Of a DNA stretch of 64,000 nt, positions 1 to 41,152 are shown piece after piece; positions within the stretch are counted from its first letter, which is position 1, and each line of letters opens with the position of its first letter. The stretch covers positions 77,660 to 141,659 of the forward strand of contig JANRLI010000016.1 of the NCBI GenBank assembly GCA_033762625.1, read 5' to 3'. The stretch is from Alphaproteobacteria bacterium. GTDB lineage: Bacteria > Pseudomonadota > Alphaproteobacteria > UBA9219 > RGZA01. A program made the position numbers and the translations under genes. The notes beneath the pieces were generated by a model. It made no database searches and was not told where the DNA came from. It was given only the letters and a program-made list of their open reading frames with translations.

Positions 1-938
1 GCAAAGACCCGCGCATCATCTGGAAAAACCATTCGCTGCTGAAAGATTTCGTGAGGATGGAACGCGTCAACCTTGTGCATGTGCGCTCGCGCGCCCCCGC
101 ATGGTCGGCTTATTTGGCAACGCGCCAATCCAACGTGCCCATGGTCACCACCATGCATTCCAGTTATGATACGCCATTTCCATGGGAAAAATTCTATAAC
201 TCCATCATGACCAAGGGGGAACGCACCATTACCCTTTCGCGCGCCATGGCCTCGTATGTGGAAAAAAATTACAATGTCCCGCCCGAACGCATCACCGTCA
301 TTCCGCGCGGCATCGATTTAAACACCTATAACCGCGATAATGTCAGCGAGGAACGCAAAGAAAAGCTTGCACAGCAAATATTGTTGCCTGAGGGCGTTCC
401 GTTCATTTTATTCCCTGGCCGTTTGATGAAAGCCAAAGGTCAGGAAATTGCGTTGCAGGCATTGGCAAAAATCCAGGAACCGTTTTTCTGCCTTATCGTC
501 GGGCCCGACCATGAACATGTCGGCTACCGCGAACATTTAAAAGCGATGAAGCAAAAACTGTTTTTGCAAGATAAAGTCACCTTCCTTGATCATGTGGATT
601 TGCCCGCTGCCTATATGCACGCGAATGTCGTCTTATGTCCTAGCCAGATTCCCGAAGCCTTCGGCCGCGTAGCAGCGGAAGCGCAAGCGATGGGCATGCC
701 GGTGATTGCCAGCAATCTGGGCGCGATGTCAGAAACCATTTTGGATGGCCAAACCGGATGGCTGGTCGAGCCGGGCAATGTCGATGAATTGGCGGACGCC
801 ATTCGCAATGCGTTGCAGCTTTCGCATTCCAACCGTCTGGCCATGGCGGAAAAAGCGATTATGCATGCCCGTGCCAATTTCAATATGGAACGCATGTGCG
901 CTACAACCCTTGCGGTTTACGCAGAATTGCTTAAATAA
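1..938 (+). CDS. Glycosyltransferase family 4 (GT4/GT1-fold), 5'-partial; reading frame is open to the window edge, GTG at 51 is only an internal codon
   Basis: N-domain motif HVRSRAPAWSAYLA...VTTMHS and C-domain EAFGRVAAEAQAMGMPVIASNLGAMSETI...GWLVEPGNVDELADAI typical of Glycos_transf_1; frame open from nt 3. Confidence 0.75.
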   Translation, partial: KDPRIIWKNHSLLKDFVRMERVNLVHVRSRAPAWSAYLATRQSNVPMVTTMHSSYDTPFPWEKFYNSIMTKGERTITLSRAMASYVEKNYNVPPERITVIPRGIDLNTYNRDNVSEERKEKLAQQILLPEGVPFILFPGRLMKAKGQEIALQALAKIQEPFFCLIVGPDHEHVGYREHLKAMKQKLFLQDKVTFLDHVDLPAAYMHANVVLCPSQIPEAFGRVAAEAQAMGMPVIASNLGAMSETILDGQTGWLVEPGNVDELADAIRNALQLSHSNRLAMAEKAIMHARANFNMERMCATTLAVYAELLK

Positions 939-1086
939 CCCTGCCCCTGCCCCACACGAAAAACCCTTTAAATAGGCGTTTTTTTGCCTTGAAACTAATT
1001 TTGCCGTTTCTCCTGCCCGCACAAAAACGGTAAAAAATGCGCCATATCACTACGCTATTTTTTAAGATTTTTTGTAAAGGTTCACC

Positions 1087-2532
1087 ATGGCCAAAGCTAT
1101 TCGACGTGACAGCAAGCCCGAGCGCACCGCTATCGTTTACACCCATTGCGTTGATGTCTTATCCGCCATGCGATTTGGCAAGGGCAGCAATACCACTCGC
1201 CTGAGCGATGCGGATATTAAAAAAACCGCGCGGCAGATTTCCCGCGCCTTTGGTCATTTTCTGGGCGATAAAGCACTAACGCGCGAAAGCGAAGTGTACC
1301 AGTTCCAGCGCAAATACGATGCATTCATTGCCGGCCTTGAAAAACGCGGCCTGAATTTTTCTCCCGAAAAAATTGTACGCATCGCAGTGCTTGCGCCAAA
1401 TCTCATCACCGGCGATCCGGAAACCACGCTTGGCAATCTATTTGGCACCCGCGACAAAAAAACCGGCTTGCGCATCAAAGGACTTATCGAACGCATTCGT
1501 GATAACGGCATCACCCTTACGAATGAAGATCTGGAACGTATTCTGGTGCGCGCGCCGCAATGGGCTTATTTAAGTCCCGATACCGTCATTGCCAAATTAT
1601 TTGGCGGTAAAGACCGTGATGGCCATACGCATATCGGCGTTTTTCCTGCACTGGAAACACAGTTTGGAAAAACCAAACTGACCGAACGGCAAAAACACGA
1701 TATGCTGGTGCGTAACCCGCAGCTTGCCTACCAAACGGGGATGATTACTAACCTCTTTGGTAAACGCAATGCCAAGGGCAGACGCACCCGGCTTGGCCTT
1801 TATGACAAGCTGGCAGCATTGGGCGCAAATCTGTCACCACAGGAAAAAGTCAAACTGCTTGCCGATTTTCCGCAGCTTGGCAGCCAGCGCCCCGAAAGCA
1901 GCATCAACCGTTTTCTTCTTAAACGTCACTTGAAATTTATCTCCGGCGTGCGCGCCCGCGCGCAAGCTCCCGTCAATGGTCAGGACATGACCAACGGCGT
2001 TGGCTATTATCTTTTCGGAATTGTTGCGTGCGAATTAATGGGAAATACCAGCAACACAATTGGCAGCGTCAATACCTATGAAGGAACGCGCAACGGTATT
2101 CTGCGCAGCTTTGGCTATCTCACTCGTGCGGGGCTTGATGCTGCGGTTGCAAAACATCTGGGGCTTGATGCAAAAACTGCAAAACGCATCCGGAATGCTG
2201 CCGCGAATGACAATCGTGAAGACAGTGTAAAAAGCAGATACGCCCTGTCTAACCGCCAACGAAACCGTCTTCTGGATGGCTTTGTACGCGCCGAGCGGCA
2301 GATCTGCGAATACAGCCGCGCCAATATCCAGCACCAATTACGTCACGGCGAAGATGCGATTTACGGCGAAGATAGACCCCATGCGGCAAAAATTATTTTT
2401 GGCGCCAGATTAGTCAACCTCGCGCAAAGCGGCGAAGACAGCGCGGCCGCACAAAAAGCGCGCGAGGAGCTGTATTACCGCATGCACATTATGATGAATA
2501 CGCGCCGCCAAACCGCGCTGAATAACGGCTAA
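1087..2532 (+). CDS. Hypothetical protein with mTERF-like repeats (repeated ...NLFG.R......L...P.LAY.. units); eukaryote-like domain, candidate effector
   Basis: Three or more ~35 aa units of form ITGDPETTLGNLFGTRD / ILVRAPQWAYLSPDTVIAKLFGG / MLVRNPQLAYQTGMITNLFGKR resembling mTERF motif L..LG.s..i..ll...P.lL; weak RBS aaagg 7 nt upstream. Confidence 0.4.
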   Translation: MAKAIRRDSKPERTAIVYTHCVDVLSAMRFGKGSNTTRLSDADIKKTARQISRAFGHFLGDKALTRESEVYQFQRKYDAFIAGLEKRGLNFSPEKIVRIAVLAPNLITGDPETTLGNLFGTRDKKTGLRIKGLIERIRDNGITLTNEDLERILVRAPQWAYLSPDTVIAKLFGGKDRDGHTHIGVFPALETQFGKTKLTERQKHDMLVRNPQLAYQTGMITNLFGKRNAKGRRTRLGLYDKLAALGANLSPQEKVKLLADFPQLGSQRPESSINRFLLKRHLKFISGVRARAQAPVNGQDMTNGVGYYLFGIVACELMGNTSNTIGSVNTYEGTRNGILRSFGYLTRAGLDAAVAKHLGLDAKTAKRIRNAAANDNREDSVKSRYALSNRQRNRLLDGFVRAERQICEYSRANIQHQLRHGEDAIYGEDRPHAAKIIFGARLVNLAQSGEDSAAAQKAREELYYRMHIMMNTRRQTALNNG

Positions 2533-2543
2533 AAAAACAACCA

Positions 2544-3128
2544 TCACGGTTTATATAAATCGGGATAGGTCAAACGCAGTTTTGCCAGCTTTGGCAGATC
2601 ATGCATGATGATGTAAGGGCTCGTCATGTTCCGCGGCAGATAATTCTGATGATAGTCTTCTGCCGGATAAAACGCCTTTAACGATTCAACCTTCGTCACA
2701 ATCTTATCCGAATATCGCTTTGCTTTTGTCAGCTCGGCAATTTTATCCTTCACGGCCTTTTCCTGTTCGGGATTGCTGGTAAATACCTGTGACCGATATT
2801 GCGTGCCACGATCTGGCCCTTGGAAATTCAATTGCGTCGGGTCATGCGCCACATTGAAATACACATCCAGCAATTGGTTTAACGATACCACCTTGGGGTC
2901 ATAGGTAATTTCAACGCTTTCGGCGTGCCCTGTATTCCCATCACTGACCTGTTCATAATTCGCTGTCTCCGCGCTACCGCCCGCATAACCAGATACTGCT
3001 TTGGAAACGCCCTTCACATGTTCAAATACAGCTTCCACACCCCAGAAACAGCCACCCGCCACGACAAGTGTTTCGGCATGCGCTGGCACAGCGAGTAACA
3101 GCGAAAAAATCAATAAAAGTTTTTTCAT
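2544..3128 (-). CDS. msrA: Peptide methionine-S-sulfoxide reductase MsrA, Sec signal peptide (periplasmic copy)
   Basis: MKKLLLIFSLLLAVPAHA signal peptide followed by GGCFWGVEA active-site motif, EDYHQNY C-terminal motif. Confidence 0.85.
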   Translation of the reverse strand: MKKLLLIFSLLLAVPAHAETLVVAGGCFWGVEAVFEHVKGVSKAVSGYAGGSAETANYEQVSDGNTGHAESVEITYDPKVVSLNQLLDVYFNVAHDPTQLNFQGPDRGTQYRSQVFTSNPEQEKAVKDKIAELTKAKRYSDKIVTKVESLKAFYPAEDYHQNYLPRNMTSPYIIMHDLPKLAKLRLTYPDLYKP

Positions 3129-3129
3129 A

Positions 3130-3609
3130 TTATGCCTGTTTGCTGCTGGGTTTGAAGGTCAGCACCGCGCCATTGCTGCAATAGCGTAATCCCGTCGGCT
3201 TTGGCCCGTCATCAAACACATGGCCATGGTGTCCGCCGCAGCGCGCACAATGATATTCGGTGCGTTTCATGAACATGGAGTTGTCTTGCTTTGTTGCAAT
3301 ATGACGTTCTATGGCAAAATAAAAACTGGGCCAGCCCGTGCCGCTATCGAACTTGGTATTCGATTCAAACAGCGGGTAATCACAACCAACGCAGTGAAAT
3401 GTTCCTTCGCGGTGTTCATCCACCAACTTGCTGGTAAAGGGCGCTTCCGTGCCTTCTTCGCGCAAAATGTGGAATTGCTCGGGCGTCAGAATTTTTTTCC
3501 ATTCATCCTTTGTCTTGGTCACCTCAAACGCATCCCCCGCCAGCAGTTTACCTGAACCTAAAAGCCCGATTGCAATCACGCTGCCCACCAAAAATTCCCG
3601 TCGTTTCAT
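3130..3609 (-). CDS. msrB: Peptide methionine-R-sulfoxide reductase MsrB with twin-arginine (Tat) signal peptide (periplasmic copy)
   Basis: N-terminus MKRREFLVGSVIAIGLLGSG (RRxFL Tat motif); HCVGC / [16 protein letters not shown] zinc and catalytic motifs of SelR/MsrB; 1 nt gap to msrA downstream. Confidence 0.85.
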   Translation of the reverse strand: MKRREFLVGSVIAIGLLGSGKLLAGDAFEVTKTKDEWKKILTPEQFHILREEGTEAPFTSKLVDEHREGTFHCVGCDYPLFESNTKFDSGTGWPSFYFAIERHIATKQDNSMFMKRTEYHCARCGGHHGHVFDDGPKPTGLRYCSNGAVLTFKPSSKQA

Positions 3610-3610
3610 A

Positions 3611-4114
3611 TTAGCTTACCTTCCAGTTTGGCCTGATATAATGGCACGTATAACCATTGGGGTGCTGCATCAGATAATCCTGATGGTAATCCTCAGCTAC
3701 ATAAAACTTCGTTGCGGCGGTAACTTCGGTTACAATCAGCCCCGGAAATTTCTGCGATGCGTTAAGTTCGTTGATCAACTGGCTCGCGGTTTTGCGTTGT
3801 TCCTCGCTCACATAAAAAATCGCAGAACGATAGGACGGGCCCACATCATTACCCTGACGGTTTTTGGTGGTGGGGTCATGAATTTGAAAAAAGAATTCCA
3901 GAATTTTGCGGTATGAAATCACATCGCTGTCAAAGGTAATTTCAATGGCTTCCGCATGGCCGGTGTTTTTCGATGTCACATCCTTATATGTCGGGTTTTC
4001 AAATGTGCCGCCGGTATATCCGACATCGGTATTGGTCACGCCCGGAAGCTTGCGGATTAAATCTTCCATGCCCCAGAAACAACCGCCTGCCAAAATTGCA
4101 CGTTCAACCGCCAT
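3611..4114 (-). CDS. msrA: Peptide methionine-S-sulfoxide reductase MsrA, cytoplasmic copy (start moved to internal ATG at 4114 after AGGAG RBS)
   Basis: [19 protein letters not shown]... GCFWG motif directly after start; ORF-track start at 4207 lacks RBS, internal ATG has aggag 8 nt upstream. Confidence 0.85.
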
Positions 4115-4122
4115 ATCCACTC

Positions 4123-4614
4123 CTAAAACAATTGTGCATATTCGCCGTATCCTTCTTTTTCCAAATCTTCCTTTGGAATGAACCGCAGCGAAGCTGAATT
4201 GATGCAATACCGAAGACCGGTCCCCACACTTTCCGCCCGAGCGGTTGCGCCATCTGGCGCAGAGCGAATGGCGCCTATGGGCCCGTCATCAAAGACATGG
4301 CCTAAATGGCTGTCGCCGTGACGCGAACGCACTTCAACGCGCACCATGCCATGGCTGGCATCGCGTTTTTCAACAATGTGCTGTTCGTTCAATGGCCGTG
4401 TAAAACTGGGCCAGCCCGTGCCGCTATCAAATTTATCGGTTGAAGAAAATAACGGTTCACCCGAAACCACATCCACATAAATCCCGGCGCGCTTTTCATT
4501 CCAGAACGCATTGCGAAAGGGGGGTTCGGTTCCGCAGGCCTGCGTGACATAGCGCTGGAGTTCATCCAACTTGGCCAGATTGGCAGGGTTCTTGGTGTAG
4601 GATTTTGGGCTCAT
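4123..4614 (-). CDS. msrB: Peptide methionine-R-sulfoxide reductase MsrB, cytoplasmic copy; first gene of msrB-msrA-msrB-msrA operon
   Basis: CGTEPPF...SGTGWPSF...[15 protein letters not shown] MsrB motifs; no signal peptide. Confidence 0.85.
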
Positions 4615-4683
4615 GGCGCACTCTATTACGTTAAAATAACAGATGAATTAATATATAAGTCTGATAGGCTATTTATCAATTCA

Positions 4684-4709
4684 TTCGACGATAAAGGCCA
4701 AATGGTTAC
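4684..4709 (-). promoter_or_regulatory. ECF sigma-F-type promoter GTAACC-N16-CGAA reading on minus strand, 70 nt upstream of msrB start; overlaps the divergent sigF start codon
   Basis: Minus-strand read gtaacc-atttggcctttatcgt-cgaa; same motif and 16 nt spacing as three other sites in this island; matches published Caulobacter sigma-F motif as recalled. Confidence 0.6.
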
Positions 4710-5271
4710 CGAACTAAATAAATATGGCGAATTTGCCGAGTTGCTACGCCGTGCGAATGACGGTGACAAGGCCTGCTACCAACGCTTTCTTGAAGGGATT
4801 GCGCCATTATTGCGCCGCCAGATTGCCGCGCGCATTCCCGTTGCAGATGTGGAAGATGTATTGCAAGAGGTACTGATTTCAGTGCACAAAGCCCGCCATA
4901 CCTATGACGGGGAACGCCCGATTATGCCTTGGCTGGCTTCCATCACCCAGTTCCGGATGATTGATTATTTACGCAAACACTATATCGCCATGCGCCACCA
5001 AACCACCGATATAACGGAGGTAGAGGATATTCTGGCAGATGTAACCCAGACCCCCGCTTCGTCCGAATCCATAGATGAGCTATTGATTGACGTGCCCGAA
5101 AAGCAGAAACGAATTTTAACCCTGATGCATGTGGAAGGGTTTACGGCAAAGCAAGTTGGGCAAAAACTTAACATGTCTGAAACGGCTGTAAAAGTTGCCG
5201 CCCATCGCGCCATGAAGAAAATACGCATCCAAAAGATGCGCACTGAACAACGAAAAGTACAATCGCAATGA
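4702..5271 (+). CDS. sigF: ECF (group sigma-70 region2/region4) RNA polymerase sigma factor, SigF-like
   Basis: Region 2 (VLQEVLISVHKARHTYDGERPIMPWLASITQFRMIDYLRK) and region 4 HTH (LTLMHVEGFTAKQVGQKLNMSETAVKVAAHRAMKKIR); 4 nt overlap with downstream anti-sigma gene. Confidence 0.8.
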   Translation: MVTELNKYGEFAELLRRANDGDKACYQRFLEGIAPLLRRQIAARIPVADVEDVLQEVLISVHKARHTYDGERPIMPWLASITQFRMIDYLRKHYIAMRHQTTDITEVEDILADVTQTPASSESIDELLIDVPEKQKRILTLMHVEGFTAKQVGQKLNMSETAVKVAAHRAMKKIRIQKMRTEQRKVQSQ

Positions 5272-5927
5272 CCGGTAAAACTGACACAACCCTTAACCTT
5301 ATTGCTCAGCTCAGCGCGGCTGCCCCTGCACATAAGCGCGCCGTCAAACCGCGCCGCCTCGCCCTATACCTATTGGCAGTTTTTACGGTCTATGCGCTAG
5401 GCGCGCAGGCCATCACGGGTCTGCGCCCTGATGTGACGGCAAAGTTAACCGATATTTGGTTTTTGGCTGAAATCACCAGCCTGCTGTGCCTTGCCTTGGC
5501 TTCGGCAGCTGCGGGCATTATGCTCATGGCGCCCGATGCATTTCAAAAACCCACGCTGCTCAAACTGCCTTATATCGTATTTGCTGTAATTATGGGGTTG
5601 ATTATATCCCAATACACCATGGCAATTGATATCACGCATCCGGTGGTTGGTATCGAAACCCAAGGGCTTGAGTGCGCGCTATGCCTTGCCGGTCTTTCCG
5701 CTATTCCATCAGCACTTATGTTTGCTGTGATAAAACACGGCGCTACGGTTCATCCCTTTCAAGCGGGTGCGTTTTCAGTCTTTACCGCTGCGGGTATTGG
5801 CTGCCTTACCCTGCGCCTTGCCGAGCAAACCGATAACATGATGCATCTTGCGCTTTGGCATTATTTGCCGACATTGCTTTTTGCCATGCTGGGCGCATTC
5901 ATCGGCAAACTTGTCTTGAAATGGTAA
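5268..5927 (+). CDS. nrsF: Membrane anti-sigma factor, NrsF/DUF1109 family (negative regulator of sigma F), about 6 TM helices with loop cysteines
   Basis: ATGA start/stop overlap with ECF sigma gene; 219 aa polytopic membrane protein with several hydrophobic spans and Cys in loops, the size and architecture of Caulobacter NrsF. Confidence 0.6.
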   Translation: MTGKTDTTLNLIAQLSAAAPAHKRAVKPRRLALYLLAVFTVYALGAQAITGLRPDVTAKLTDIWFLAEITSLLCLALASAAAGIMLMAPDAFQKPTLLKLPYIVFAVIMGLIISQYTMAIDITHPVVGIETQGLECALCLAGLSAIPSALMFAVIKHGATVHPFQAGAFSVFTAAGIGCLTLRLAEQTDNMMHLALWHYLPTLLFAMLGAFIGKLVLKW

Positions 5928-5929
5928 TA

Positions 5930-5960
5930 AAAAAAGGGAGAGGCATTGCCTCTCCCTTTT
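5930..5960. terminator. Bidirectional rho-independent terminator between convergent nrsF and bufA1-like gene
   Basis: aaaaaaa-GGGAGAGGC-att-GCCTCTCCC-tttt: perfect 9 bp stem, A-run on one side and T-run on the other. Confidence 0.75.
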
Positions 5961-5980
5961 CACACGATATGACTTACTGC

Positions 5981-6238
5981 TTATTCTTTGGAAGCGCCAG
6001 CAATTTTATCGCACGCACCCTTTGGAAGATAAATCCACACATTCGGGTCAGCATCTTTTTTGGCTGAACCAGCGCAGCTATTTTTACCATCCTTCGATGC
6101 GCAATCATTCTTTCCGGCCTTAGCCACCCCATAGCATTTTTCGCGTTCAGGGGATTTACCGCCCATCTCTTCGGCATGGGACAGGTTTGCAGCCATCAAT
6201 CCGGCAAGGACAGCAGCAGCGACAAGGGTCTTTTTCAT
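5981..6238 (-). CDS. DUF2282-family (BufA1-type bufferin) secreted Cys-containing RiPP precursor; no maturase genes adjacent
   Basis: Signal peptide MKKTLVAAAVLAGLMAANLSHA then EKCYGVAKAGKNDCAS...NSCAGS...WIYLPKGACDKIAG, the DUF2282 signature with 4 Cys. Confidence 0.7.
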   Translation of the reverse strand: MKKTLVAAAVLAGLMAANLSHAEEMGGKSPEREKCYGVAKAGKNDCASKDGKNSCAGSAKKDADPNVWIYLPKGACDKIAGASKE

Positions 6239-6319
6239 GATTTACTCCATAAGGTTAGGCAATAGATGGTAAGGCGGGAAGCCCGAGGATAGCCCAAAAA
6301 ACTGGGCTTTGCTCACTCA

Positions 6320-6345
6320 TTCGCAACCTAATGCACTTTGGTTAC
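6320..6345 (-). promoter_or_regulatory. Sigma-F-type promoter GTAACC-N16-CGAA on minus strand, ~80 nt upstream of DUF2282 gene
   Basis: Minus-strand read gtaacc-aaagtgcattaggttg-cgaa. Confidence 0.6.
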
Positions 6346-6385
6346 ATATGGAACAATTTAATAACCGGGGACTCATTTCCTACTT

Positions 6386-6411
6386 GTAACCACTTTTCAA
6401 ATGGCTGCGAA
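6386..6411 (+). promoter_or_regulatory. Sigma-F-type promoter GTAACC-N16-CGAA, 70 nt upstream of the 104 aa Cys/His-rich peptide gene
   Basis: gtaacc-acttttcaaatggctg-cgaa on plus strand. Confidence 0.6.
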
Positions 6412-6481
6412 TAAGGTGATATGGCGTCTCAATGCCACACCACCTGTGGCATGATTTAACATTCCATCCGGAGAAACCCTT

Positions 6482-6796
6482 ATGAAGACTTCAAAAAAAC
6501 TTGCTGCTGCTGCGCTTGCTGGCGCAATGGCCGTTATGACCACTGCTGCATTTGCTGGTGATGATTTCCCATCCTTGTACCCACAAGGCTACAAAGGAAA
6601 TGGCTCTTCCTACTCGGCAGAAAAAGCTTCCTGCAAAGGCGCTGGTTCATGCAAGAGCGGTGCAGGTTGCAACGCAGAAAAATCATGCGCAGCTGCAAAG
6701 CCAAAGCATCACAAGTCACACAAGAAAGCAGCTCCTGCCGCAGCACCTGCGCCAGCAGCAGCGATGAAGCCAGCTGAAAAGCCAGCCAAGCACTAA
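6482..6796 (+). CDS. Secreted Cys-rich peptide (4 Cys in SCKGAGSCKSGAGCNAEKSC) with His/Lys-rich and Ala/Pro-rich C-terminal tail; 6Cys-bufferin-like variant, stand-alone
   Basis: Signal peptide MKTSKKLAAAALAGAMAVMTTAAFA; CKG..SCK..GC spacing like BUF_6Cys half-repeat; tail KPKHHKSHKKAAPAAAPAPAAAMKPAEKPAKH; own promoter and own terminator. Confidence 0.55.
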   Translation: MKTSKKLAAAALAGAMAVMTTAAFAGDDFPSLYPQGYKGNGSSYSAEKASCKGAGSCKSGAGCNAEKSCAAAKPKHHKSHKKAAPAAAPAPAAAMKPAEKPAKH

Positions 6797-6829
6797 TTCG
6801 ATACGTCTTAGGCTTGTTAACAATTGAAA

Positions 6830-6859
6830 GTGGAGGCAGCAATGCCTCCACTTTTTTTT
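6830..6859 (+). terminator. Rho-independent terminator after 104 aa peptide gene
   Basis: GTGGAGGCAGC-aa-TGCCTCCAC followed by tttttttt. Confidence 0.75.
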
Positions 6860-6873
6860 ATGATAAATGGCAT

Positions 6874-6899
6874 GTAACCATCCATTGCAACACTGCGAA
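6874..6899 (+). promoter_or_regulatory. Sigma-F-type promoter GTAACC-N16-CGAA, 64 nt upstream of 6-Cys precursor gene
   Basis: gtaacc-atccattgcaacactg-cgaa on plus strand. Confidence 0.6.
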
Positions 6900-6963
6900 T
6901 ACACAGACATGCCACGCGGATTATCTTGCATGCGCATTCAACACTTAACATCTGGAGAATATA

Positions 6964-7221
6964 ATGTCTGGTCATTCAAAGAAACTTGCTGTCGCTGCAC
7001 TTGCCGGCCTTCTCACCATGGGCTTTTCAGTCGCCCCAGGCCAAGCGCACGCAACCACTGACAATGCGGCAGCGTCAGATACCCAAATCGAAAAGCATGC
7101 CTGCAAGGGACAAAATTCCTGCAAAGGCAATGGCGGCTGCAAAACCGAACGTAACGCCTGCAAGGGACAAAATGCCTGCAAGGGACTTGGCGGCTGCGCT
7201 ACCGACGGCAGCAAGAAATAA
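6964..7221 (+). CDS. BUF_6Cys-type (BufA2-like) bufferin precursor peptide, signal peptide plus two CKGQN.CKG.GGC repeats
   Basis: MSGHSKKLAVAALAGLLTMGFSVAPGQAHA then ACKGQNSCKGNGGCKTERNACKGQNACKGLGGCATDG (6 Cys); RBS ggagaa upstream. Confidence 0.7.
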   Translation: MSGHSKKLAVAALAGLLTMGFSVAPGQAHATTDNAAASDTQIEKHACKGQNSCKGNGGCKTERNACKGQNACKGLGGCATDGSKK

Positions 7222-7275
7222 TAATTCGATCTAGGTGACCCATTCATCCGCATAATACATGATGAAGGGCACAAA

Positions 7276-7304
7276 CCGGCGGTGGCAACGCCGCCGGTTT
7301 TTTT
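7276..7304 (+). terminator. Intra-operon hairpin/attenuator between precursor gene and maturase gene
   Basis: CCGGCGG-tggcaac-GCCGCCGG followed by ttttttt, then maturase ATG at 7318. Confidence 0.6.
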
Positions 7305-7317
7305 ATATGGTAGCGGC

Positions 7318-9000
7318 ATGTCCAACCCGTCTTCATCACCTGTTCCGTATCTTGGTTTTGGTCTTGGCCTGCGCATTCCGCATTACGCGCATATTCTGGA
7401 AACGCGCCCTGCGGTGGACTGGTTTGAAATCATCTCCGAAAATTTTATGGATACGGATGGCAGGCCAAAACGCAATCTGGCCAAATTCCGCACGCTTTAC
7501 CCCATCGTCATGCACGGCGTTGCCATGTCGATTGGCACTGCCGATCCGCTCAATTCGGAATATATGCGCAAGCTAAAAGCGCTGAAGAATGAACTGAACC
7601 CTGCATGGATATCCGACCATTTATGCTGGACGGGCATTGCGCACAAAACCACCCACGACTTGTTACCCGTCCCCTATACCGAGGAAGCGCTCAAACACAT
7701 CACGCAGCGCATCAAGGACGTACAGGATTTTCTGGAATGTCCAATTGCGCTGGAAAATCCATCCACTTACCTTGAATTCAAATCATCGCAAATGCCGGAG
7801 GCCGAATTTATCGCGCGCATGGCAACGGATTCCGGCTGCCATTTGCTGCTTGATGTGAACAATGTCTATGTAACCTGCTATAACCACCGCCTTGATGCGA
7901 AAGCATATATCGACGCACTACCCCTAAACCATGTGGCGCAGATCCATTTATCGGGCCACAGCAATATGGGCACCCATATTATCGATACGCATGACGACCA
8001 TGTGGTTGACGATGTATGGGCGCTTTACAAATACGTGATGCACAAGGCGGCGCGCCCCATCAACACCATGATTGAATGGGACGACAATATCCCCGAATTC
8101 GGCGTTGTGTTTGCCGAACTTGAAAAAGCAAAAGCCGCTGCCAAGGATGCGCAGAATTACGCCCCGCTGCCGGATTTGGCTGCGCCGCATGCCGCCTACC
8201 GCGCCAATCATGTGACGGGACTGGCACATTCCCAAACGCACATGCAGGACGCCATATTAAACGGCGCCGATGATGAACCAGCCGCGTGGATTAAAGAAAA
8301 AGAAAACTTCAGCGCCAGCGACCAGCTGGATGTCTATATCAATGGCTACCGCTACCGCCTTTATAACGTCACATCAGAAGATTATCCGGTTCTAAAATAC
8401 GCATTAGGCACAGATACCTTTGATACAATGCTTATGGATTGCATCAACAAAATCCCCGCAACCCATTTTAACATTGCGCGCTATTCCATTCATGTTCCGG
8501 AATTTCTGGCAAGCCACGAAACCGCAACACCCTTTGCACTTGAAATTGCGCAGCTGGAATCAGCAATCGCGCAATTAATGGATGCGCCCGAAACACCCCC
8601 CCTCACGCCCCAGCATTTAAGCCATCTCACCCCCGAAGCATTGATGGAAAGCACCCTTGCGCCGCGCAAAGCCTTGCAGCTTTTTGCCTTCAGCTATCCC
8701 GTTAATGATTATTTTCAGGCCGTCAAAAATGATCAGTCTCCACCGCGCCCTGAAATGCAGAACAGCTTTCTTGCGGTGTACCGCCACGAGGATGATGTCT
8801 GGCGCTTGCCACTGGAAGAGCACGAATATCATTTGCTTCGCAACATCTTTAGCGGGTTGACGATTGGCGATGCGCTGGAAAAAACCCAGAACGACATGGC
8901 CCTTGATGATGAAGCATTGCCTTTGCAACTAACCCACTGGTTTGCGCGGTGGATGCGTAACGGTTTGCTCGCATCTTACGAAGATAACCATATCCACTAA
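7318..9000 (+). CDS. Fused MNIO (DUF692, MbnB/BufB-like multinuclear non-heme iron oxidase) - DUF2063 (BufC/MbnC-like partner) protein; start reassigned to ATG after the hairpin (ORF-track start 7282 lies inside the terminator stem)
   Basis: N-half GFGLGLRIPHYAHI...DWFEIISENFMD...HGVAMSIGTADPL...ISDHLCW...LENPSTYLEF...DVNNVYV = DUF692 TIM-barrel motifs; C-half ...DVYINGYRYRLYNV... DUF2063 signature (R.DVYRNN-like); single 561 aa ORF. Confidence 0.75.
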   Translation: MSNPSSSPVPYLGFGLGLRIPHYAHILETRPAVDWFEIISENFMDTDGRPKRNLAKFRTLYPIVMHGVAMSIGTADPLNSEYMRKLKALKNELNPAWISDHLCWTGIAHKTTHDLLPVPYTEEALKHITQRIKDVQDFLECPIALENPSTYLEFKSSQMPEAEFIARMATDSGCHLLLDVNNVYVTCYNHRLDAKAYIDALPLNHVAQIHLSGHSNMGTHIIDTHDDHVVDDVWALYKYVMHKAARPINTMIEWDDNIPEFGVVFAELEKAKAAAKDAQNYAPLPDLAAPHAAYRANHVTGLAHSQTHMQDAILNGADDEPAAWIKEKENFSASDQLDVYINGYRYRLYNVTSEDYPVLKYALGTDTFDTMLMDCINKIPATHFNIARYSIHVPEFLASHETATPFALEIAQLESAIAQLMDAPETPPLTPQHLSHLTPEALMESTLAPRKALQLFAFSYPVNDYFQAVKNDQSPPRPEMQNSFLAVYRHEDDVWRLPLEEHEYHLLRNIFSGLTIGDALEKTQNDMALDDEALPLQLTHWFARWMRNGLLASYEDNHIH

Positions 9001-9014
9001 CCAAAGGACCTTTT

Positions 9015-9440
9015 ATGAACAAGGCTATACTATTCTACACGCAGCGGGTTTTGCCTGCATTGAATAATCTTTCATCCTTGCCGGTACTCGGCCTGCGGCT
9101 ATGGATTGCAGATGTTTTTTTCCAGTCGGGCCACACCAAATTACTGGATTGGCAAGGCACGGTTGCACTGTTTGCCGATGAATATAAGGTTCCGGTTTTA
9201 CCACCGGAAATTGCGGCATCACTTGGCACCGCAACGGAACTTGTTGCACCTGTCTTGCTCGCCATCGGACTAGGTGGCCGTTTTGCAGCCTGCGCTATGC
9301 TTTTCATGACCGGCGTGATCGAATTCACCTATATGCATTTTGATGTGCATGTCATCTGGGCGTTAACCCTTGCCCTGATTATCCTGCAAGGGCCTGGAAA
9401 ATTGTCGTTGGATTACCTGTTAAGAAAGCGTTTTGGCTAG
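9015..9440 (+). CDS. DoxX-family small membrane protein (BufD-like)
   Basis: 141 aa, 4 predicted TM spans, position immediately after MNIO/DUF2063 gene as in buf operons. Confidence 0.65.
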   Translation: MNKAILFYTQRVLPALNNLSSLPVLGLRLWIADVFFQSGHTKLLDWQGTVALFADEYKVPVLPPEIAASLGTATELVAPVLLAIGLGGRFAACAMLFMTGVIEFTYMHFDVHVIWALTLALIILQGPGKLSLDYLLRKRFG

Positions 9441-9600
9441 GTTTTATGACCCAAATGTACAAATCCTGAGGGCACTTCCCCTTTAATATTATTATCGTTT
9501 TACTTTCGAAACAGGCGTGCTTCTATATGCCCAGCAGGACACGCTCCGCTGTGTGCGGCCTGCATAGCGCTCAAGCCCTATTTTTCGAAAGGTGTATTTC

Positions 9601-10374
9601 ATGCGTCTTCTTGCATTAGCTGTTGTTTTATTTTTCGCGCAGCCAGCGTTATCCGCGCAGATTCAATTTTTCCCGCCGCAAGGCCCGTGCAATGCCGATA
9701 ACCCGATTTTGGCATGGAACGGAAATGGCAGCACCTATTGCACCCGTTTTCCAACCGCCGCTATTCCTGATTGCGGTGATGGCGAATTCCTTACCAAGAA
9801 AAACGGCAATCTTGCTTGCGTGAAAGTTTCCACCGGCGCTGTCTCATCCTCAACGCCTGCTGCGCCAACCGCGCCAACCACCACGACTTCATCCGGCAAC
9901 ACCACAACACCAACGCCTGCTTATAATTCAAACGGCACACCAACTGGCGCAGCGCCAAGCGTTGCAGCAAGCAATGGCAAAACCCAAACAACACCGGTAA
10001 CCATACCAAATCCGGTACAGCGCACAGGTAACAATGCCTGCCCCGACATTACCATTCCGGTTTGCGCTTCTGATTCCGTGCTCGTAAATTACGGGCTTGA
10101 TTTCAATGGCTGCCAGACATCCCCGCAATGCAAATATATGGGGTCAACCGCAGCAGCGCAGGCAGCTTACGCCAGCTATGCCAATGGCGGGTTATCGAAT
10201 AACAGCGTCGCCAGCAGCAACGGTTATGGCTACTACGACCCATACGCCAGCTATTATTCGGGATCGTCCTATTACACAACTCCAACCTATGTGGATGAAG
10301 TTTACGTCGAACCCGAGCCAGTGTATTACGAAGAACAGCCTAGCTATGCTTCTGAGCCTTATTATGAAGAATAA
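9601..10374 (+). CDS. Secreted hypothetical protein, Cys-containing N-domain then Ser/Thr/Pro-rich linker and Tyr-rich acidic C-terminus
   Basis: Signal peptide MRLLALAVVLFFAQPALSA; low-complexity TPAAPTAPTTTTSSGNTTTPTP; C-terminal YYDPYASYYSGSSYYTTPTYVDEVYVEPEPVYYEE; ATG 9601 preferred over GTG 9592 (RBS aaagg spacing). Confidence 0.5.
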   Translation: MRLLALAVVLFFAQPALSAQIQFFPPQGPCNADNPILAWNGNGSTYCTRFPTAAIPDCGDGEFLTKKNGNLACVKVSTGAVSSSTPAAPTAPTTTTSSGNTTTPTPAYNSNGTPTGAAPSVAASNGKTQTTPVTIPNPVQRTGNNACPDITIPVCASDSVLVNYGLDFNGCQTSPQCKYMGSTAAAQAAYASYANGGLSNNSVASSNGYGYYDPYASYYSGSSYYTTPTYVDEVYVEPEPVYYEEQPSYASEPYYEE

Positions 10375-10376
10375 GC

Positions 10377-12758
10377 TTAGAACGTAAACTTCAAACCTGC
10401 TGCAAAGGTTTGGTCAAAGCGGTTACCAATCGGCGCGCCAACATCATAGGTTGCAAACGCGCTGAATGTTTCATCCAGCGTCACGTCAAAGCCCATGCCA
10501 AGCGTAAGGGTGTGGCGTGCAGCGGAAACACCCTGCAAGCTTGCAGCCACCCCGATAATGGTTGCCTGCGTATTATTTGATGCGTCAAACACATCATAGC
10601 TGTATTTCACGCGCGCATTGGGTATGAATGCATATTCGCCAATCTTTTTAGCAGGTGCGGTGAAATTCAATCCCGTATAAAGGCGCAGCAAATTGTTCGC
10701 ACGCGAAGCAACGCTGATATTCGAAATGCCAGCTCCGCTTTCGCTAAATGCATCTTCATAGACATAGGCGTAATTGGCGCCTACACGCGGGGTAATACCA
10801 AATCCGTTCAGCTTCATACGCTTTGATACATGCAATCCTGTGGAAAGTTCATGCGCGGCATGATTGCTATTGGCGGCAATGGCTGGCGCAATATAACGCG
10901 CATTATCAATATCGTGATGCGCATAACCCATCTGGCCATCGAGCGCGATATCATCCCACACCTTGCTGCCATACAAAGCAAAACGCACAGTGTTGGCTTC
11001 ACCTTCGCTTCTGGTCGCGGCATATCCCGTCAGGCCCGTATGCTCATATCCGCCTGCTGCACCAAAGCGAAGACCTTTTTCAATTTTCCTATCCACACCA
11101 AACATAAATCCGCCGGTTTGCGTTTCATATCCTGCGGCGGAACTATTACTGGATACTGAACCCAAATTGCCTATTGCCTTGAACCAGCCGTTATTGCGTT
11201 TCATTACTGCTGGCAATGCCTTAGCCAGTGCGTTCATGCCTTGAATATTTTCAGAATGCGTTACAGTCGTATCACGCAAAGATGTAAAGGTGAGATCACT
11301 GCCCGCATCGCTGCTTGAGCCTGTATCACCCAAATGGTCAAACATCACATCGCTTGCGCGCGCACCTGAATCAAATGATGTACTGGTGGTCGTAGTCAGA
11401 CTGCTGGTAGCAGGAAGCTTGCTGGCATCTGGAACCGTTAGACTAATTGTAACATCGGTTGGGTTGTACATCACATTGCCAAACGTAAAACCCGTCGGCG
11501 CACTCGTTACCACGCTTGTAAATTCACCTGTAATGCTTCCTGCTTTGATGACTGTGTATTTAGATTGTGGATTATCGCTATTTAGTAAATTTAAAATCAA
11601 CCGTCCACCAAGTATTGCATTCCCCATAACCGTTAGCGCAGGCGCTGCATCGGTAAGACCGACTATCAATATAGATTGCGGCGGTGTGGGCGGTGGCGTT
11701 GGTTGGTAAATAGAGATATTTAATGTGAGTGATTTTACCGTTTGATGAAATCCCCCAAGATCAAGTGTTGAGTCTTTAGTAACATACACATCCGAGTTGG
11801 GGCTTAAGGTATTTTCTGCGCCCGCCAGTAATGCTCCGTTACCATACAGTATTTGATTAGCTTGCGGGTCAGCAGCGTAGTTTCCCGTAGCAATATATGT
11901 TGGACCGGAATAGCTGTTAGCTCCATGAAGTGTTGTTGTGGTTCCAAGAATATTTACATTAACGGCACCGCCAATCTGATTAATGGTTCCACCTACTGAA
12001 GTAATAATCCACGGACCATTGAGAATGCCATTTTGTACGGTACCGCCAAACAAACGTACAGGACCCGAGCTGTGCGTAGTGCCGCCATAATCAACAATAC
12101 CGCCACTATAAACTACCGAGCTGTAAGAAATCCAAGACGCCAGATTAGCAAGATTAAGCGTGCCGCCATTAACAGTTGCCTCGCCAGTAACTACACCCAC
12201 CAAATTGGTTGTGCCCGAGTTTACATTTAAGTTGAGGCCATAATTGGTAGAGATGTTTTCAATTGTACCGCCTGTTGAATTAACTTGCGGAAAAAAATAA
12301 ATAGAGTACCCAAACGGATCTACAAGCAATCCATTTCGAAGTGTGCCGCCATTAAGATGGATTAGATTAATTGCTTCGCTGCGCCCATCAAAATCAAGCG
12401 TTGCACCTGTACTAATAGTGGTGACTGACGTTCGACTAAATACAAAATTAGCACCTAATTTCAGTATACCATGATTCACATTCGTATCACCCGTATATGT
12501 ATTGGCACCTGATAGCGTCAGGGCACCAGAACCCGTCTTGGTAATTGCTGTACCACTTCCTGTAATCGCACCACTTTGTGTCGCTTCATCGAAATTGTTG
12601 ACCTGTAATGTCTCCGTAGTTGTAATCGGGGTTGCTCTGTTTTGTCCGTTAGTATAAACGATGGTCGCCGATGCAGGTACAGCGATGCCGCATAATAATG
12701 CGGCGCTTAATACCAATAATATGGAAGAACGATGGAACGATGTGCGCATGAAAACCAA
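10377..12758 (-). CDS. Autotransporter (type Va) adhesin-like protein with signal peptide, beta-helical passenger and C-terminal translocator barrel
   Basis: Signal peptide; Gly/Thr/Asn-rich passenger; C-terminal barrel region with alternating hydrophobic residues ending AAGLKFTF (terminal Phe). Confidence 0.75.
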   Translation of the reverse strand: MVFMRTSFHRSSILLVLSAALLCGIAVPASATIVYTNGQNRATPITTTETLQVNNFDEATQSGAITGSGTAITKTGSGALTLSGANTYTGDTNVNHGILKLGANFVFSRTSVTTISTGATLDFDGRSEAINLIHLNGGTLRNGLLVDPFGYSIYFFPQVNSTGGTIENISTNYGLNLNVNSGTTNLVGVVTGEATVNGGTLNLANLASWISYSSVVYSGGIVDYGGTTHSSGPVRLFGGTVQNGILNGPWIITSVGGTINQIGGAVNVNILGTTTTLHGANSYSGPTYIATGNYAADPQANQILYGNGALLAGAENTLSPNSDVYVTKDSTLDLGGFHQTVKSLTLNISIYQPTPPPTPPQSILIVGLTDAAPALTVMGNAILGGRLILNLLNSDNPQSKYTVIKAGSITGEFTSVVTSAPTGFTFGNVMYNPTDVTISLTVPDASKLPATSSLTTTTSTSFDSGARASDVMFDHLGDTGSSSDAGSDLTFTSLRDTTVTHSENIQGMNALAKALPAVMKRNNGWFKAIGNLGSVSSNSSAAGYETQTGGFMFGVDRKIEKGLRFGAAGGYEHTGLTGYAATRSEGEANTVRFALYGSKVWDDIALDGQMGYAHHDIDNARYIAPAIAANSNHAAHELSTGLHVSKRMKLNGFGITPRVGANYAYVYEDAFSESGAGISNISVASRANNLLRLYTGLNFTAPAKKIGEYAFIPNARVKYSYDVFDASNNTQATIIGVAASLQGVSAARHTLTLGMGFDVTLDETFSAFATYDVGAPIGNRFDQTFAAGLKFTF

Positions 12759-35072: not shown

Positions 35073-35148
35073 TGGTGGGCGATGTAGGATTCGAACCTAC
35101 GACCTATTGATTAAGAGTCAACTGCTCTACCAACTGAGCTAATCGCCC
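35073..35148 (-). tRNA. tRNA-Lys (anticodon CTT), 76 nt, CCA encoded
   Basis: GGGCGATTAGCTCAGTTGGTAGAGCAGTTGACTCTTAATCAATAGGTCGTAGGTTCGAATCCTACATCGCCCACCA; 7 bp acceptor stem perfect, D-arm GCTC/GAGC, anticodon stem GTTGA/TCAAT, loop CTCTTAA, T-arm GTAGG-TTCGAAT-CCTAC. Confidence 0.85.
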
Positions 35149-40700: not shown

Positions 40701-41152
40701 TCGGCCGTGCCGCGTCCATGCTGCACAATAAAATCAAATGCGCGGTCACGTTCTGGGCGGGCATCTTCCACCACATTGTCATGGCTGTGGGGCGCGGCGA
40801 CTTTGATAACCTGCCCGATGAATACCACATGTTCCATCACGCGGCGCAGGCGCGCGGGTTCGTTCTTGTATTTCTGGAATACACTGTCGAACACACCGTG
40901 GCGGCGTGCTTCCACGGCTTTTTCCATGCCGTAGAGTGTATTCAGAAAATTCGCATCGGCGAATTCATGCGCGCTATAGACACTGCTGTCGATGACCGGT
41001 GTGATCAATTCATCCGCGATCACTTCAAGATCAGGGATAAGATCGGCATCTTCTTCTGGAACCAGATGCTGCAAGATAGGGGCAATGAATGCCTTGGCGG
41101 TGCGCGCTTGGTAATAGGAGCGCAGATCTTCATTACTAATTCCGTCGAGCAC
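37733..41152 (-). CDS. Highly divergent phosphoenolpyruvate carboxylase-like protein (1139 aa)
   Basis: VSTSHPTRYTT (cf. PEPC VLTAHPTE), WVMGDKDGNNN (cf. WMGGDRDGNP), MRNYSKHDADV (cf. MIGYSDSGKDAG), FHGGSKSDTARGG (cf. FHGRGGSVGRGG) in the canonical order; lacks C-terminal QNTG. Confidence 0.45.
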   Translation of the reverse strand: MLDGISNEDLRSYYQARTAKAFIAPILQHLVPEEDADLIPDLEVIADELITPVIDSSVYSAHEFADANFLNTLYGMEKAVEARRHGVFDSVFQKYKNEPARLRRVMEHVVFIGQVIKVAAPHSHDNVVEDARPERDRAFDFIVQHGRGTADFSTIIPEGLEHYLSEIIRIGEITNGAEMRAALATPVITSVSTSHPTRYTTSAFTDARRVFALAQREMTRRVNAGETHLLLDYMNGRGEAFEALQRMKEADLTFKDDDGNLANLTPLGEIMASLADITDDFTRNIDEIYRKNDNAMQRLSDAKILPYEYDAQERLLTELSLRFATWVMGDKDGNNNIRSEHLLLATALFRHKASELYAQQLNDSGLVVDGAPDGGTWNDYLAAKNAEMADIIEPLLKRIAGAGNGVDLPLSREEYEGALTAIKNVYAFDGGNINEVNAKFQQSLTAAYHTTQGAQQKAALSLIRKSKMLGLGLLNFHLRETAEVYEPVMATLLNGNETLFGYKIEDYAGLEDAQKLALLNSALGKGGDVLGKLKTDFFARLKSEGKTADTMRNYSKHDADVITLHTLQRFEVGGMQDGLITDHVLAECQGALQMMETLLVSKMTGVNMVIVPLLEDIETLTQAVPIFEDVFKQRAWRDHMWEMAQGDPTRIVNLLKIQFAHSDCMRRGGLPRARSNIYDQANLLVPGMKELFPKILQAYVRDGRIQAKDVSGILKQMNERPTAYHVRQFHGGSKSDTARGGVRSTTAFNKDANLADWMEDTHQGGDNPELRLCERFQRLQTTLVARNALELVKKSKGNGASWNYGREHALNDAIDNSIEDYLENHYGAQNQLGKAMGEVGFYDVNHTLNNPGSRQGRSETGGIKAVYPNTKPVAPGDMRTIGFTTTGLDMGVGFAVLPMRNMAKYINQLYGTRPDLRAELLRDAQQAFGDDVVIFENDALTPKGLQTLYKVSPIYRAAVADFPAFGVAISNVQFTVDLLKQREERGAPKVSIETMDYFTKSLPLDIVGAAVPYLQAKGVEIPEGFISKDELANPNPETCSKLSFLIRKITMQHIDEQMGMGARMQDFSRIARETLYIKAMETPDQPYSKDAEYMFRLAGIARGLSGHQIYDGASDHSMGVRRVEKRAQREHWAPALAAA

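Follow-up and report, generated by a model that had tools for sequence, protein, structure and literature searches.

A 64,000-nt stretch of an alphaproteobacterial genome (assembly GCA_033762625.1, contig JANRLI010000016.1; the whole stretch is called the window below) carries, at positions 2544-9440, a gene cluster that we interpret with good confidence as the local regulon of SigF, an extracytoplasmic function (ECF) sigma factor of the ECF16 type, and its membrane anti-sigma factor NrsF, in a variant with its own feedback wiring. An ECF sigma/anti-sigma pair is, in the usual description, an autoregulated switch, in which positive feedback acts on the sigma factor and negative feedback acts through the co-transcribed anti-sigma factor. 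The clade to which the window belongs is one of uncultured, Rickettsiales-like alphaproteobacteria and, as far as comparison of its loci can tell, it seems to keep only the negative feedback arm, driven by a promoter within the codons of sigF itself. The SigF/NrsF pair, the msr genes, the bufferin cluster and the promoter motif have already been described in model organisms. The features that differ from the described systems are the lack of an autoregulatory promoter, a candidate nrsF promoter that is embedded in and constrains the sigF codons, the overlap of a -35 element with the sigF start codon, candidate intragenic promoters, and a fused BufB-BufC protein that accompanies three precursors.

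Distribution of the sigma-F motif

The sequence-only reading of the window had reported four copies of the motif GTAACC-N16-CGAA. An exact search of the 64 kb recovered all four, with the positions, orientations and 16-nt spacer that had been given (P1-P4, Table 1), but the count itself was too low: there is a fifth exact copy (P5) in msrA1, and to these are added a site with a 17-nt spacer in sigF (P6) and a one-mismatch site in bufBC (P7). Five exact sites compare with 0.06 expected by chance, and none of 100 shuffled controls contained five. These five sites fall in the interval 3.7-6.9 kb, and the other ~57 kb of the window has no exact copy. In a wider set made up of the window and 34 sigF loci (543 kb in total) there are 32 exact sites, and all 27 of those in the loci fall within about 3 kb of sigF. 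In exact form the motif is above random expectation and, within the window, restricted to this cluster, which favors the first reading. When one mismatch was allowed, the window gave 12 matches against 2.65 expected (+/- 1.6, maximum 8). Six of these lie outside the cluster (at 935, 24650, 51299, 52198, 54447 and 59281); we rejected them as additional regulon members, as five are within coding regions, each has its mismatch at a motif base, and their number is about that expected by chance.

The base preceding the motif is T in 29 of the 32 exact sites, and the base following it is T or C in 31. An extended consensus, tGTAACCa...gCGAAt, had been proposed for all four intergenic sites; it is present at P2-P4, whereas P1 reads gGTAACCa...tCGAAt. 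Distances to the gene starts of 64, 69, 70 and 81 nt agree with the 60-80 nt first estimated. GTAACC-N16-CGAA is the Caulobacter sigma-F binding sequence, defined by rapid amplification of 5' cDNA ends (5'-RACE) and lacZ fusions (PMC3511200), and the ECF16 consensus quoted for Brucella BcrS, (T/C)GTAAC-N17-CGAA (PMC8315932), is equivalent to it, so the window motif is the ECF16 target promoter consensus. The target genes are those first named (msrBABA, the DUF2282 gene, the gene of a 104-residue peptide here called pep104, and a six-cysteine precursor-MNIO-DoxX operon), all matched by Pfam or NCBIfam families except pep104. Relatives have functionally similar targets: in their loci the motif precedes genes for MsrA/B, a DsbD-thioredoxin fusion, a thioredoxin-like protein of the periplasm, DoxX and bufferin-type peptides, a set with a parallel in the Bradyrhizobium EcfF regulon.

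Related loci were collected by a scan with the SigF protein, one genome per species, which gave 80 loci. The nearest, from uncultured Alphaproteobacteria and 'Rickettsiales' metagenome-assembled genomes, have SigF identities of 72% (L001) and 49-61% (L002-L019), and the ECF16 outgroups (Pseudomonas, Paraburkholderia, Hyphomicrobium and others) ~30-36% (29-36% in L022-L035). Further loci, L083/L084 and L085, were reached through homologues of pep104 and share the gene order of the window; L083 and L085 retain all seven sites P1-P7 when spacer and single-mismatch variants are included. Among the intergenic sites, P2 is exact in both and has an N17 spacer in L001. An exact P3 is found in L083 and a one-mismatch copy in L085; for P4 the exact copy is that of L085, and both L083 and L001 carry GTAACT, one mismatch away.

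A close relative that lacks sigF-nrsF at this locus serves as a natural knockout control, because the motifs are kept where sigF is present and have decayed where it is absent. The locus L081/L082 (GCA_021732145.1, locus coordinates 3451-8081) is otherwise syntenic but has no sigF-nrsF, bufA2 or doxX, and retains msrB-A-B-A, bufA1, a pep104 homologue and bufBC. In it, the -10 element of P2 is GGAA instead of CGAA, P3 has two mismatches and a mutated -10 element, deletions have removed the regions of P1 and P4, divergence has affected that of P7, and P5 has been erased by synonymous changes. It is hard to reconcile this pattern with the proposal that the sites are read by another regulator or by a sigma factor encoded elsewhere, or that they are chance matches. 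That proposal, to which we give very little credence, is also opposed by the identity of the motif with the experimentally defined sigma-F/ECF16 promoter, by its co-occurrence with sigF in 34 loci of different lineages, and by the chance expectation given above. We conclude that P1-P4 are very probably sigma-F promoters. Hairpins in the 5' leaders downstream of P1-P4 were no better than those of shuffled sequences (z -0.01 to -1.75); the bufA2-bufBC terminator alone was clearly better (z = -3.5). An Rfam search of the region gave no match.

The sigF-nrsF pair and the lack of a sigma-F-like site upstream of it

The gene pair at the center of the cluster is what had been recognized from the letters alone, an ECF sigma gene overlapped by a gene for a polytopic anti-sigma factor. 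SigF consists only of the sigma2 and sigma4 domains (Sigma70_r2 at residues 47-93, Sigma70_r4_2 at 122-174), and the start of nrsF overlaps the sigF stop as ATGA. The suggested comparison of 5268-5927 with PF06532 gave an end-to-end match (E 2.3e-30), and the hydropathy profile has several transmembrane-like segments. The protein scores only 27.9 bits against the NCBIfam equivalog NF042994, for which the cut-off is 300, and therefore the window NrsF is a distant member of its family. Its cysteine 136, the counterpart of the first canonical NrsF cysteine, is invariant in 33 of 33 aligned homologues, and a CxxC at 136-139 is found in 13 of the 33, mostly of this clade; further cysteines of the window protein are at 139 and 179. 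A second sensor-cysteine column is occupied by cysteine in nine proteins of the outgroup (Pseudomonas, Paraburkholderia, Hyphomicrobium and others) and by glutamate (position 186) in the window and the clade, in an alignment that did not include Caulobacter NrsF or OsrA. The signal and the release mechanism may therefore differ from those of Caulobacter or Bradyrhizobium.

No motif had been noticed upstream of sigF, and this absence is common to the whole clade. With a sigma-F-like site defined as having at most two mismatches at N16 or at most one at N15 or N17, none is present 5' of sigF in the window, and within 350 nt 5' of sigF the best plus-strand matches of 20 clade members (the window and L001-L019, with the near-duplicate L013 omitted) have two to four mismatches, which is background. 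By this criterion, the window and L001-L019 show no counterpart of the autoregulatory sigma-F-type promoter, a feature that is typical of the four studied ECF16 members without strictly defining the group. The same search does find a site with zero or one mismatch, 42-255 nt upstream of sigF, in the outgroup loci L022, L024-L029 and L031. It could be argued that sigF is autoregulated after all, through a degenerate or distant sigma-F-type promoter overlooked by a pattern search, as all four characterized ECF16 systems are autoregulated and no alternative sigF promoter was identified here. We regard this as improbable, since the upstream matches in the clade do not rise above background, the sole one-mismatch match (in the window, N17) lies inside sigF, several outgroup loci do have sites by the same criterion, and the intergenic region of the window is only 87 bp long and mostly taken up by P1 and the msr 5' leader.

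The divergent promoter P1 bears directly on the sigF start. As had been pointed out, the two overlap: the -35 box of P1 and the sigF ATG (4702-4704) share G4704 (ATGGTTACC). The overlap (ATGGTTAC) recurs in 10 of 21 clade members and in one decayed copy, independent of whether the gene downstream of P1 is msrB, a DsbD fusion, a thioredoxin-like gene or doxX. Moreover, the sigF ribosome-binding site sits in the P1 spacer, so any sigF promoter must overlap or face P1, and we infer that mutual interference is plausible. The more specific idea that SigF-polymerase sitting on P1 hinders sigF expression is, in our estimation, rather doubtful.

A candidate nrsF promoter within sigF

P6 is a GTAACC-N17-CGAA site in the codons that link the sigma2 and sigma4 domains of SigF. 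It ends 201 nt before the nrsF ATG (about 195-201 nt upstream) and is the only N17 match in the window. The site is found in 20 of 21 clade members, whose guanine-plus-cytosine (GC) content ranges from 33 to 59%; 17 of them carry it exactly, and in three the third position of the Thr codon is the single mismatch. In an alignment of 19 of the genes, the codons GTA and GAA are invariant (19/19 each) and ACC is used in 16/19, and the base before GAA is C in 18 of 18 although that codon specifies differing residues (S, N, D, Y, G, T, R). For synonymous conservation, the P6 columns come first both in the set of 55 conserved-residue columns and in that of 47 variable-residue columns, and the five codons between the two boxes are hypervariable in sequence and constant in number. 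Outgroup ECF16 sigF genes have no counterpart of P6. The two kinds of site are distributed in a complementary manner, as the clade has the internal site without an upstream one, and several outgroup ECF16 loci have the upstream site and none internal. These patterns make it reasonably likely that P6 is a sigma-F promoter that serves nrsF without sigF.

In the only clade copy without P6 (L011, around 8001-8970), five codons of the sigF linker are deleted, the nrsF open reading frame (ORF) is truncated, with 151 residues, and the divergent promoter has CAAA in place of CGAA. This locus looks to be decaying. A conserved ORF comprising sigma4 only and starting after P6 was considered and dropped, as its in-frame start codons vary across the clade.

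Candidate promoters within msrA1 and bufBC

P5 lies in the 3' part of msrA1, upstream of the periplasmic msrB2-msrA2 pair, and is conserved despite amino-acid changes; its spacer is N16 in L083 and L085, and L001 has N17. Each of the four sigF-bearing genomes encodes the peptide IVTE as ATT GTA ACC GAA, followed 16 or 17 nt on by CGAA, which is supplied by differing codons (ACG AAG, TCG AAG, CGC GAA). L081 encodes the identical peptide as ATC GTG ACG GAA and has no CGAA, so the site was lost by synonymous changes only, and no such fixed coding of IVT is seen in the paralogue msrA2, after which no gene follows. On this comparative evidence, P5 is probably a sigma-F promoter boosting msrB2-msrA2.

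The weakest site is P7, among the final codons of bufBC. It is present in eight relatives with a DoxX gene downstream (L001, L002, L005, L008-L010, L083 and L085) and not in L004, L081, L014 and L017, which have no doxX there. That it acts as a promoter for doxX is a tentative suggestion, somewhat less likely to be right than wrong.

Taken together, the conservation of P5, P6 and P7 strongly suggests internal promoters. The competing view is that only the four intergenic sites are promoters and that the three internal ones are conserved for other reasons, such as residue and codon preference, roadblock or decoy binding, or an RNA element. All three do lie in coding sequence, where part of the motif follows from conserved residues (IVTE in MsrA, RNGLL in BufC). 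Codon preference, however, cannot produce invariant GTA and GAA codons across 33-59% GC, nor an invariant third-position C at a variable residue; the IVT(E/K) peptide is freely coded in msrA2 and in the sigF-less L081; and the Val-Thr pair of P6 stands in an otherwise hypervariable linker and is not found in outgroup SigF proteins. A roadblock or decoy role is possible for P6, yet it would still constitute sigma-F-dependent feedback. We therefore consider this competing view unlikely and regard the internal sites as candidate promoters.

Several observations nevertheless weigh against our interpretation, both of the internal sites and of the circuit as a whole. Promoter calls in this organism derive from sequence and comparison. 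The spacer of P6 is 17 nt, which is non-canonical beside the 16 nt of P1-P5; N17 spacing also occurs at intergenic promoters (P1 in L083 and L085, P2 in L001), and the EcfF promoter, GTAAC(g/a)-N14-15-(t/c)CG(t/a), has a one-base spacer flexibility (PMC3420878). The nrsF gene has no obvious Shine-Dalgarno sequence, or other visible ribosome-binding site for independent translation, and its start overlaps the sigF stop, so its translation may need that of sigF, which would be missing from a P6 transcript. The second sensor cysteine of characterized NrsF/OsrA proteins appears to align with Glu in the clade. As for sigF's own promoter, a sigma-70 scan of 4615-4701 on the plus strand gave nothing, and a hand-picked candidate, TTAAAA-N17-TATAAG, was rejected for lying inside a 13-nt stretch that is absent from L001. 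P7 lacks the usual T before the -35 element, has its mismatch at the sixth base, is not present in L015 and L016 even though these have doxX, and is carried by only two or three independent lineages. Finally, the absence of sigF-nrsF from L081 refers to this locus.

A model of the circuit

By analogy with Caulobacter, Bradyrhizobium, Azospira and Brucella, we propose that NrsF, a six-helix membrane anti-sigma factor, holds SigF at the membrane until an envelope oxidant or metal signal frees it, after which SigF-RNA polymerase would fire the TGTAACC-N16/17-CGAA promoters. Transcription from P1 would yield MsrB1-MsrA1-MsrB2-MsrA2, that is, a cytoplasmic and a periplasmic pair of methionine sulfoxide reductases, with P5 boosting the second pair. 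P2 would serve the orphan Buf1 (DUF2282) precursor, P3 the BufA2-like 104-residue peptide, and P4 bufA2, a terminator, the fused bufBC maturase gene and doxX, the last also served by P7. P6 would raise NrsF without sigF and make the response self-limiting. In this scheme sigF would be made from a sigma-F-independent promoter, and active SigF would raise only its inhibitor; it may also hinder sigF transcription by sitting on P1. The lack of an upstream sigma-F promoter, together with the placement of the P1 -35 box on the sigF ATG, thus leads us to a circuit with negative feedback and without the positive autoregulation of the four studied ECF16 systems. Control at the level of the anti-sigma factor rather than by autoregulation had been suggested at the outset; the missing upstream promoter fits that suggestion, which is nonetheless incomplete, as sigma-F probably feeds back on nrsF alone through P6.

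We further hypothesize, tentatively and with some doubt that all of its parts hold together, that the clade has been rewired jointly: autoregulation was lost, a linker-codon promoter, kept by selection on synonymous sites, came to drive NrsF only, fusion of the -35 element with the ATG may hinder sigF, and operons were split into separately boosted sub-units; a single fused MNIO-partner enzyme would mature three separately transcribed precursors of two bufferin classes.

Bufferin genes

The genes downstream of P2-P4 comprise what characterizes a bufferin cluster, namely cysteine-containing precursors with Sec signals, an MNIO with its DUF2063-RRE partner (here fused) and a DoxX gene, which is frequent in such clusters without being essential. 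A mature bufferin is further characterized by conversion of its cysteines to thiooxazole and by binding of copper. The bufBC product contains PF05114 (E 4.9e-104, residues 26-287), PF09836 (E 7.7e-9, residues 318-409) and NGO1945_C (E 0.003); it scores 354 bits against NF050167 MNIO_BufB (cut-off 310), with an HvfC-type RRE (E 6e-10) in the same ORF. The fusion is also found in L001-L010, L015, L016, L081, L083 and L085. In L014 and L017, the MNIO and its partner fall on two separate tblastn segments and are probably separate genes. The six cysteines of BufA2 are arranged in a CKG repeat pattern. The order precursor-terminator-maturase recurs in L001 (hairpin at 10097-10126), as does the hairpin between nrsF and bufA1 (9252-9280).

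The 104-residue peptide matches no Pfam or NCBIfam family. In a BLASTP comparison with BufA2, it shows weak similarity (E 1e-5) over the first three cysteines, which is only the first part of the Buf2 pattern, and it has only five homologues among 5.8 billion proteins, all at least 81% identical. We read it as a young, lineage-restricted and divergent BufA2-like paralogue, a reading drawn from these similarities. Its 5' leader (6431-6452, plus strand) can form a hairpin, AUGCCACA...UGUGGCAU, of which the stem is kept and the loop varies in L081, L083 and L085; with z = -1.75 it is not significant alone.

Comparison with known systems

The closest counterpart of the cluster is the SigF-NrsF system (ECF16) of Caulobacter crescentus/vibrioides, which shares with it an ECF sigma gene overlapped by a DUF1109/NrsF gene, the GTAACC-N16-CGAA motif, leaders of ~60-80 nt, and buf1/buf2 operons beside sigF-nrsF with DUF2282 and six-cysteine precursor, MNIO, DUF2063 and DoxX targets (PMC3511200; PMC11626156). 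The likeness to the Caulobacter regulon that had been drawn from the gene content therefore stands for the bufferin operon genes. It does not extend to msr: in the 2012 regulon study the Msr-type member was yedY/msrP, and msrA homologues did not respond (PMC3511200), whereas the targets in the window are msrA/B. Caulobacter also differs in having a sigma-F-dependent promoter of its own for sigF, for which none was found in the window; in having separate BufB and BufC proteins; in lacking the arrangement of three precursor genes, each with its own promoter, around one common maturase; and in the conserved NrsF pair C131/C181, the second cysteine of which appears to align with Glu in the window. 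No promoter within sigF has been reported there.

What ties ECF16 to msrA/B is Bradyrhizobium japonicum EcfF (PMC3420878) together with a statement in the Brucella paper (PMC8315932). EcfF-OsrA is, as in the window, an ECF16 pair with a regulon dominated by peptide methionine sulfoxide reductases, which holds three Msr genes together with one for a cytochrome c biogenesis (DsbD-like) protein; unlike the window, ecfF-osrA is strongly autoregulated, and no bufferin genes were reported in the regulon (PMC3420878). OsrA has exactly two cysteines, C129 and C179, of which C179 is necessary for responding to H2O2 (PMC3420878). The hypochlorite-responsive ECF16 systems SigF-NrsF of Azospira suillum and BcrS-AbcS of Brucella melitensis resemble the window in that a target operon diverges from the sigma gene across a shared short intergenic region, in the repair of periplasmic methionine oxidation, and in the elements -35 TGTAAC and -10 GCGAA(T/A). 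They differ in their targets, yedYZ/msrPQ and a methionine-rich peptide, and in the sigma operons having their own sigma-F-type promoter. An overlap of the -35 element with the sigma start codon has not been described in either.

A precedent for P6 exists in another ECF group (RpoE/RseA). In Escherichia coli, the sigma-E promoter rseA P3 lies within rpoE at a distance of 228 nt from rseA, compared with about 195-201 nt here, and gives an anti-sigma transcript without the sigma gene (PMC8595263). That promoter was mapped experimentally, whereas P6 is inferred, and it adds to a sigma-E-dependent rpoE promoter and has been called potentially redundant (PMC8595263); P6, in contrast, would be the sole sigma-F-dependent input to its operon. 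A literature term search found no paper tying nrsF or osrA to an internal promoter, although this does not prove that there is none.

Bufferin clusters, which belong to the MNIO-dependent ribosomally synthesized and post-translationally modified peptides, are known with the same components (precursors with Sec signals and cysteines, MNIO, DUF2063-RRE, DoxX), and orphan precursors and multi-precursor clusters have been described (PMC12452194). A 2025 MNIO survey (PMC12452194) found sigma/NrsF genes with Buf1 but not Buf2 clusters, whereas sigF-nrsF in the window adjoins both an orphan Buf1 gene and a Buf2-type cluster. By term search, that survey does not mention an MNIO-partner fusion, which may still have been reported.

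If confirmed, the clade would provide a compact example of how feedback topology evolves within one ECF group, and an example of a coding sequence constrained by a promoter embedded in it. It would likewise exemplify the joint control, by a single sigma factor, of copper-buffering peptides and of methionine repair in cytoplasm and periplasm, a coordination that may matter for survival in protist hosts.

Features of the cluster and its surroundings

Table 1. Genes and predicted regulatory elements of the sigF-nrsF cluster (window coordinates)
Feature	Position	Strand	Description
msrA2	2544-3128	-	periplasmic methionine-S-sulfoxide reductase, Sec-type signal, last msr gene; TIGR00401 E 8.7e-54; 1 nt to msrB2
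msrB2	3130-3609	-	periplasmic methionine-R-sulfoxide reductase, Tat-like N-terminus (MKRREFLVG...); SelR PF01641 E 2e-48; 1 nt to msrA1
msrA1	3611-4114	-	cytoplasmic methionine-S-sulfoxide reductase, no signal peptide; PF01625 PMSR E 1.5e-65; start taken at M32 of the listed ORF
P5	3708-3733	-	exact GTAACC-N16-CGAA in 3' part of msrA1, 99 nt 5' of msrB2; candidate internal promoter for msrB2-msrA2
msrB1	4123-4614	-	cytoplasmic methionine-R-sulfoxide reductase, no signal peptide, first gene of msrB-A-B-A; Pfam SelR E 4.7e-43
Sigma-70-like promoter	4650-4679	-	TTGATA-N18-TATATT, just 3' of P1; 10/12 matches
P1	4684-4709	-	exact site; predicted sigma-F-type promoter of msr operon; CGAA end to msrB1 ATG (4614) 69 nt
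sigF	4702-5271	+	ECF (group 4) sigma factor, ECF16/SigF type; Pfam Sigma70_r2, Sigma70_r4_2, Sigma70_ECF
P6	5041-5067	+	GTAACC-N17-CGAA in sigma2-sigma4 linker codons of sigF; candidate sigma-F-dependent promoter for nrsF alone
nrsF	5268-5927	+	polytopic anti-sigma factor (DUF1109); PF06532 NrsF E 2.3e-30, profile 1-204/204
Terminator-like hairpin, bidirectional	5929-5960		GGGAGAGGC-ATT-GCCTCTCCC flanked by A/T runs, between convergent nrsF and bufA1
bufA1	5981-6238	-	DUF2282/Buf1-type precursor, signal peptide, four Cys; PF10048 E 1.3e-23; own predicted promoter, no adjacent maturase
P2	6320-6345	-	exact site; predicted sigma-F-type promoter of bufA1; 81 nt to ATG 6238
P3	6386-6411	+	exact site; predicted sigma-F-type promoter of pep104, back to back with P2; 70 nt to ATG 6482
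pep104	6482-6796	+	secreted 104-residue, 4-Cys peptide, His/Lys/Pro/Ala-rich tail
Intrinsic terminator after pep104	6826-6855	+	13-bp stem, then T run
P4	6874-6899	+	exact site; predicted sigma-F-type promoter of bufA2-bufBC-doxX; 64 nt to ATG 6964
bufA2	6964-7221	+	six-Cys Buf2-type precursor, signal peptide; NF050166 E 1.7e-13, 50.6 bits, below curated cut-off of 60
Strong terminator/attenuator hairpin, bufA2-bufBC	7273-7300	+	12-bp stem, 8 GC pairs, then T7; z = -3.5
bufBC	7318-9000	+	one ORF: MNIO maturase (BufB) fused to DUF2063/RRE partner (BufC); alternative start GTG 7282
P7	8957-8982	+	GTAACG-N16-CGAA (one mismatch), last codons of bufBC, 32 nt 5' of doxX; possible internal promoter
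doxX	9015-9440	+	DoxX-family membrane protein (BufD-like); PF07681 E 1.3e-15; NF050144 HvfX family E 1e-16, below curated cut-off

The cluster had first been described as a compact island starting at 4123. The sites are indeed clustered, but the unit spans 2544-9440 and starts at 2544 because the msr operon has four genes, and it is neither compositionally distinct nor demonstrably mobile. GC content is 0.48-0.52 over 1-11 kb of the window, the same as in the flanks, and the flanking glycosyltransferase gene and a gene for a 260-residue protein are syntenic in L001. We therefore rejected a compositional or mobile island and regard the unit as one conserved chromosomal cluster.

The four msr genes are separated by gaps of only 1-8 nt. 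The N-terminus of MsrA2 reads MKKLLLIFSLLLAVPAHA. MsrB1 has an extra stretch of about 17 residues between another conserved motif and GLRYCINS, and the length of the protein varies from 145 to 165 residues among close relatives. An equivalent of the sigma-70-like promoter (TTGATA-N16-18-TATAxx) is found in L001, L083 and L085, making four genomes with the window. It probably gives basal msr transcription, so that the msr operon would have housekeeping and stress promoters in tandem.

Upstream of the cluster, an intergenic and correctly oriented ATAACC-N16-CGAA (935-960, plus strand) stands 127 nt 5' of an ORF of 481 residues (1087-2532, plus strand) and is probably a chance match. The ORF has no Pfam match and is kept in L081 and L083, and not in L001 or L085. 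On the other side, the 260-residue protein (9592-10374, plus strand) is secreted, rich in Thr, Ser and Pro, and without a family match; it is syntenic beside the cluster in L001, L081, L083 and L085. It is followed by an autotransporter gene (10377-12758, minus strand). Farther along, the window holds three very large ORFs of 1872, 2376 and 1139 residues (13266-18884, minus; 27605-34735, plus; 37733-41152, minus) and a single tRNA-Lys gene at 35073-35148.

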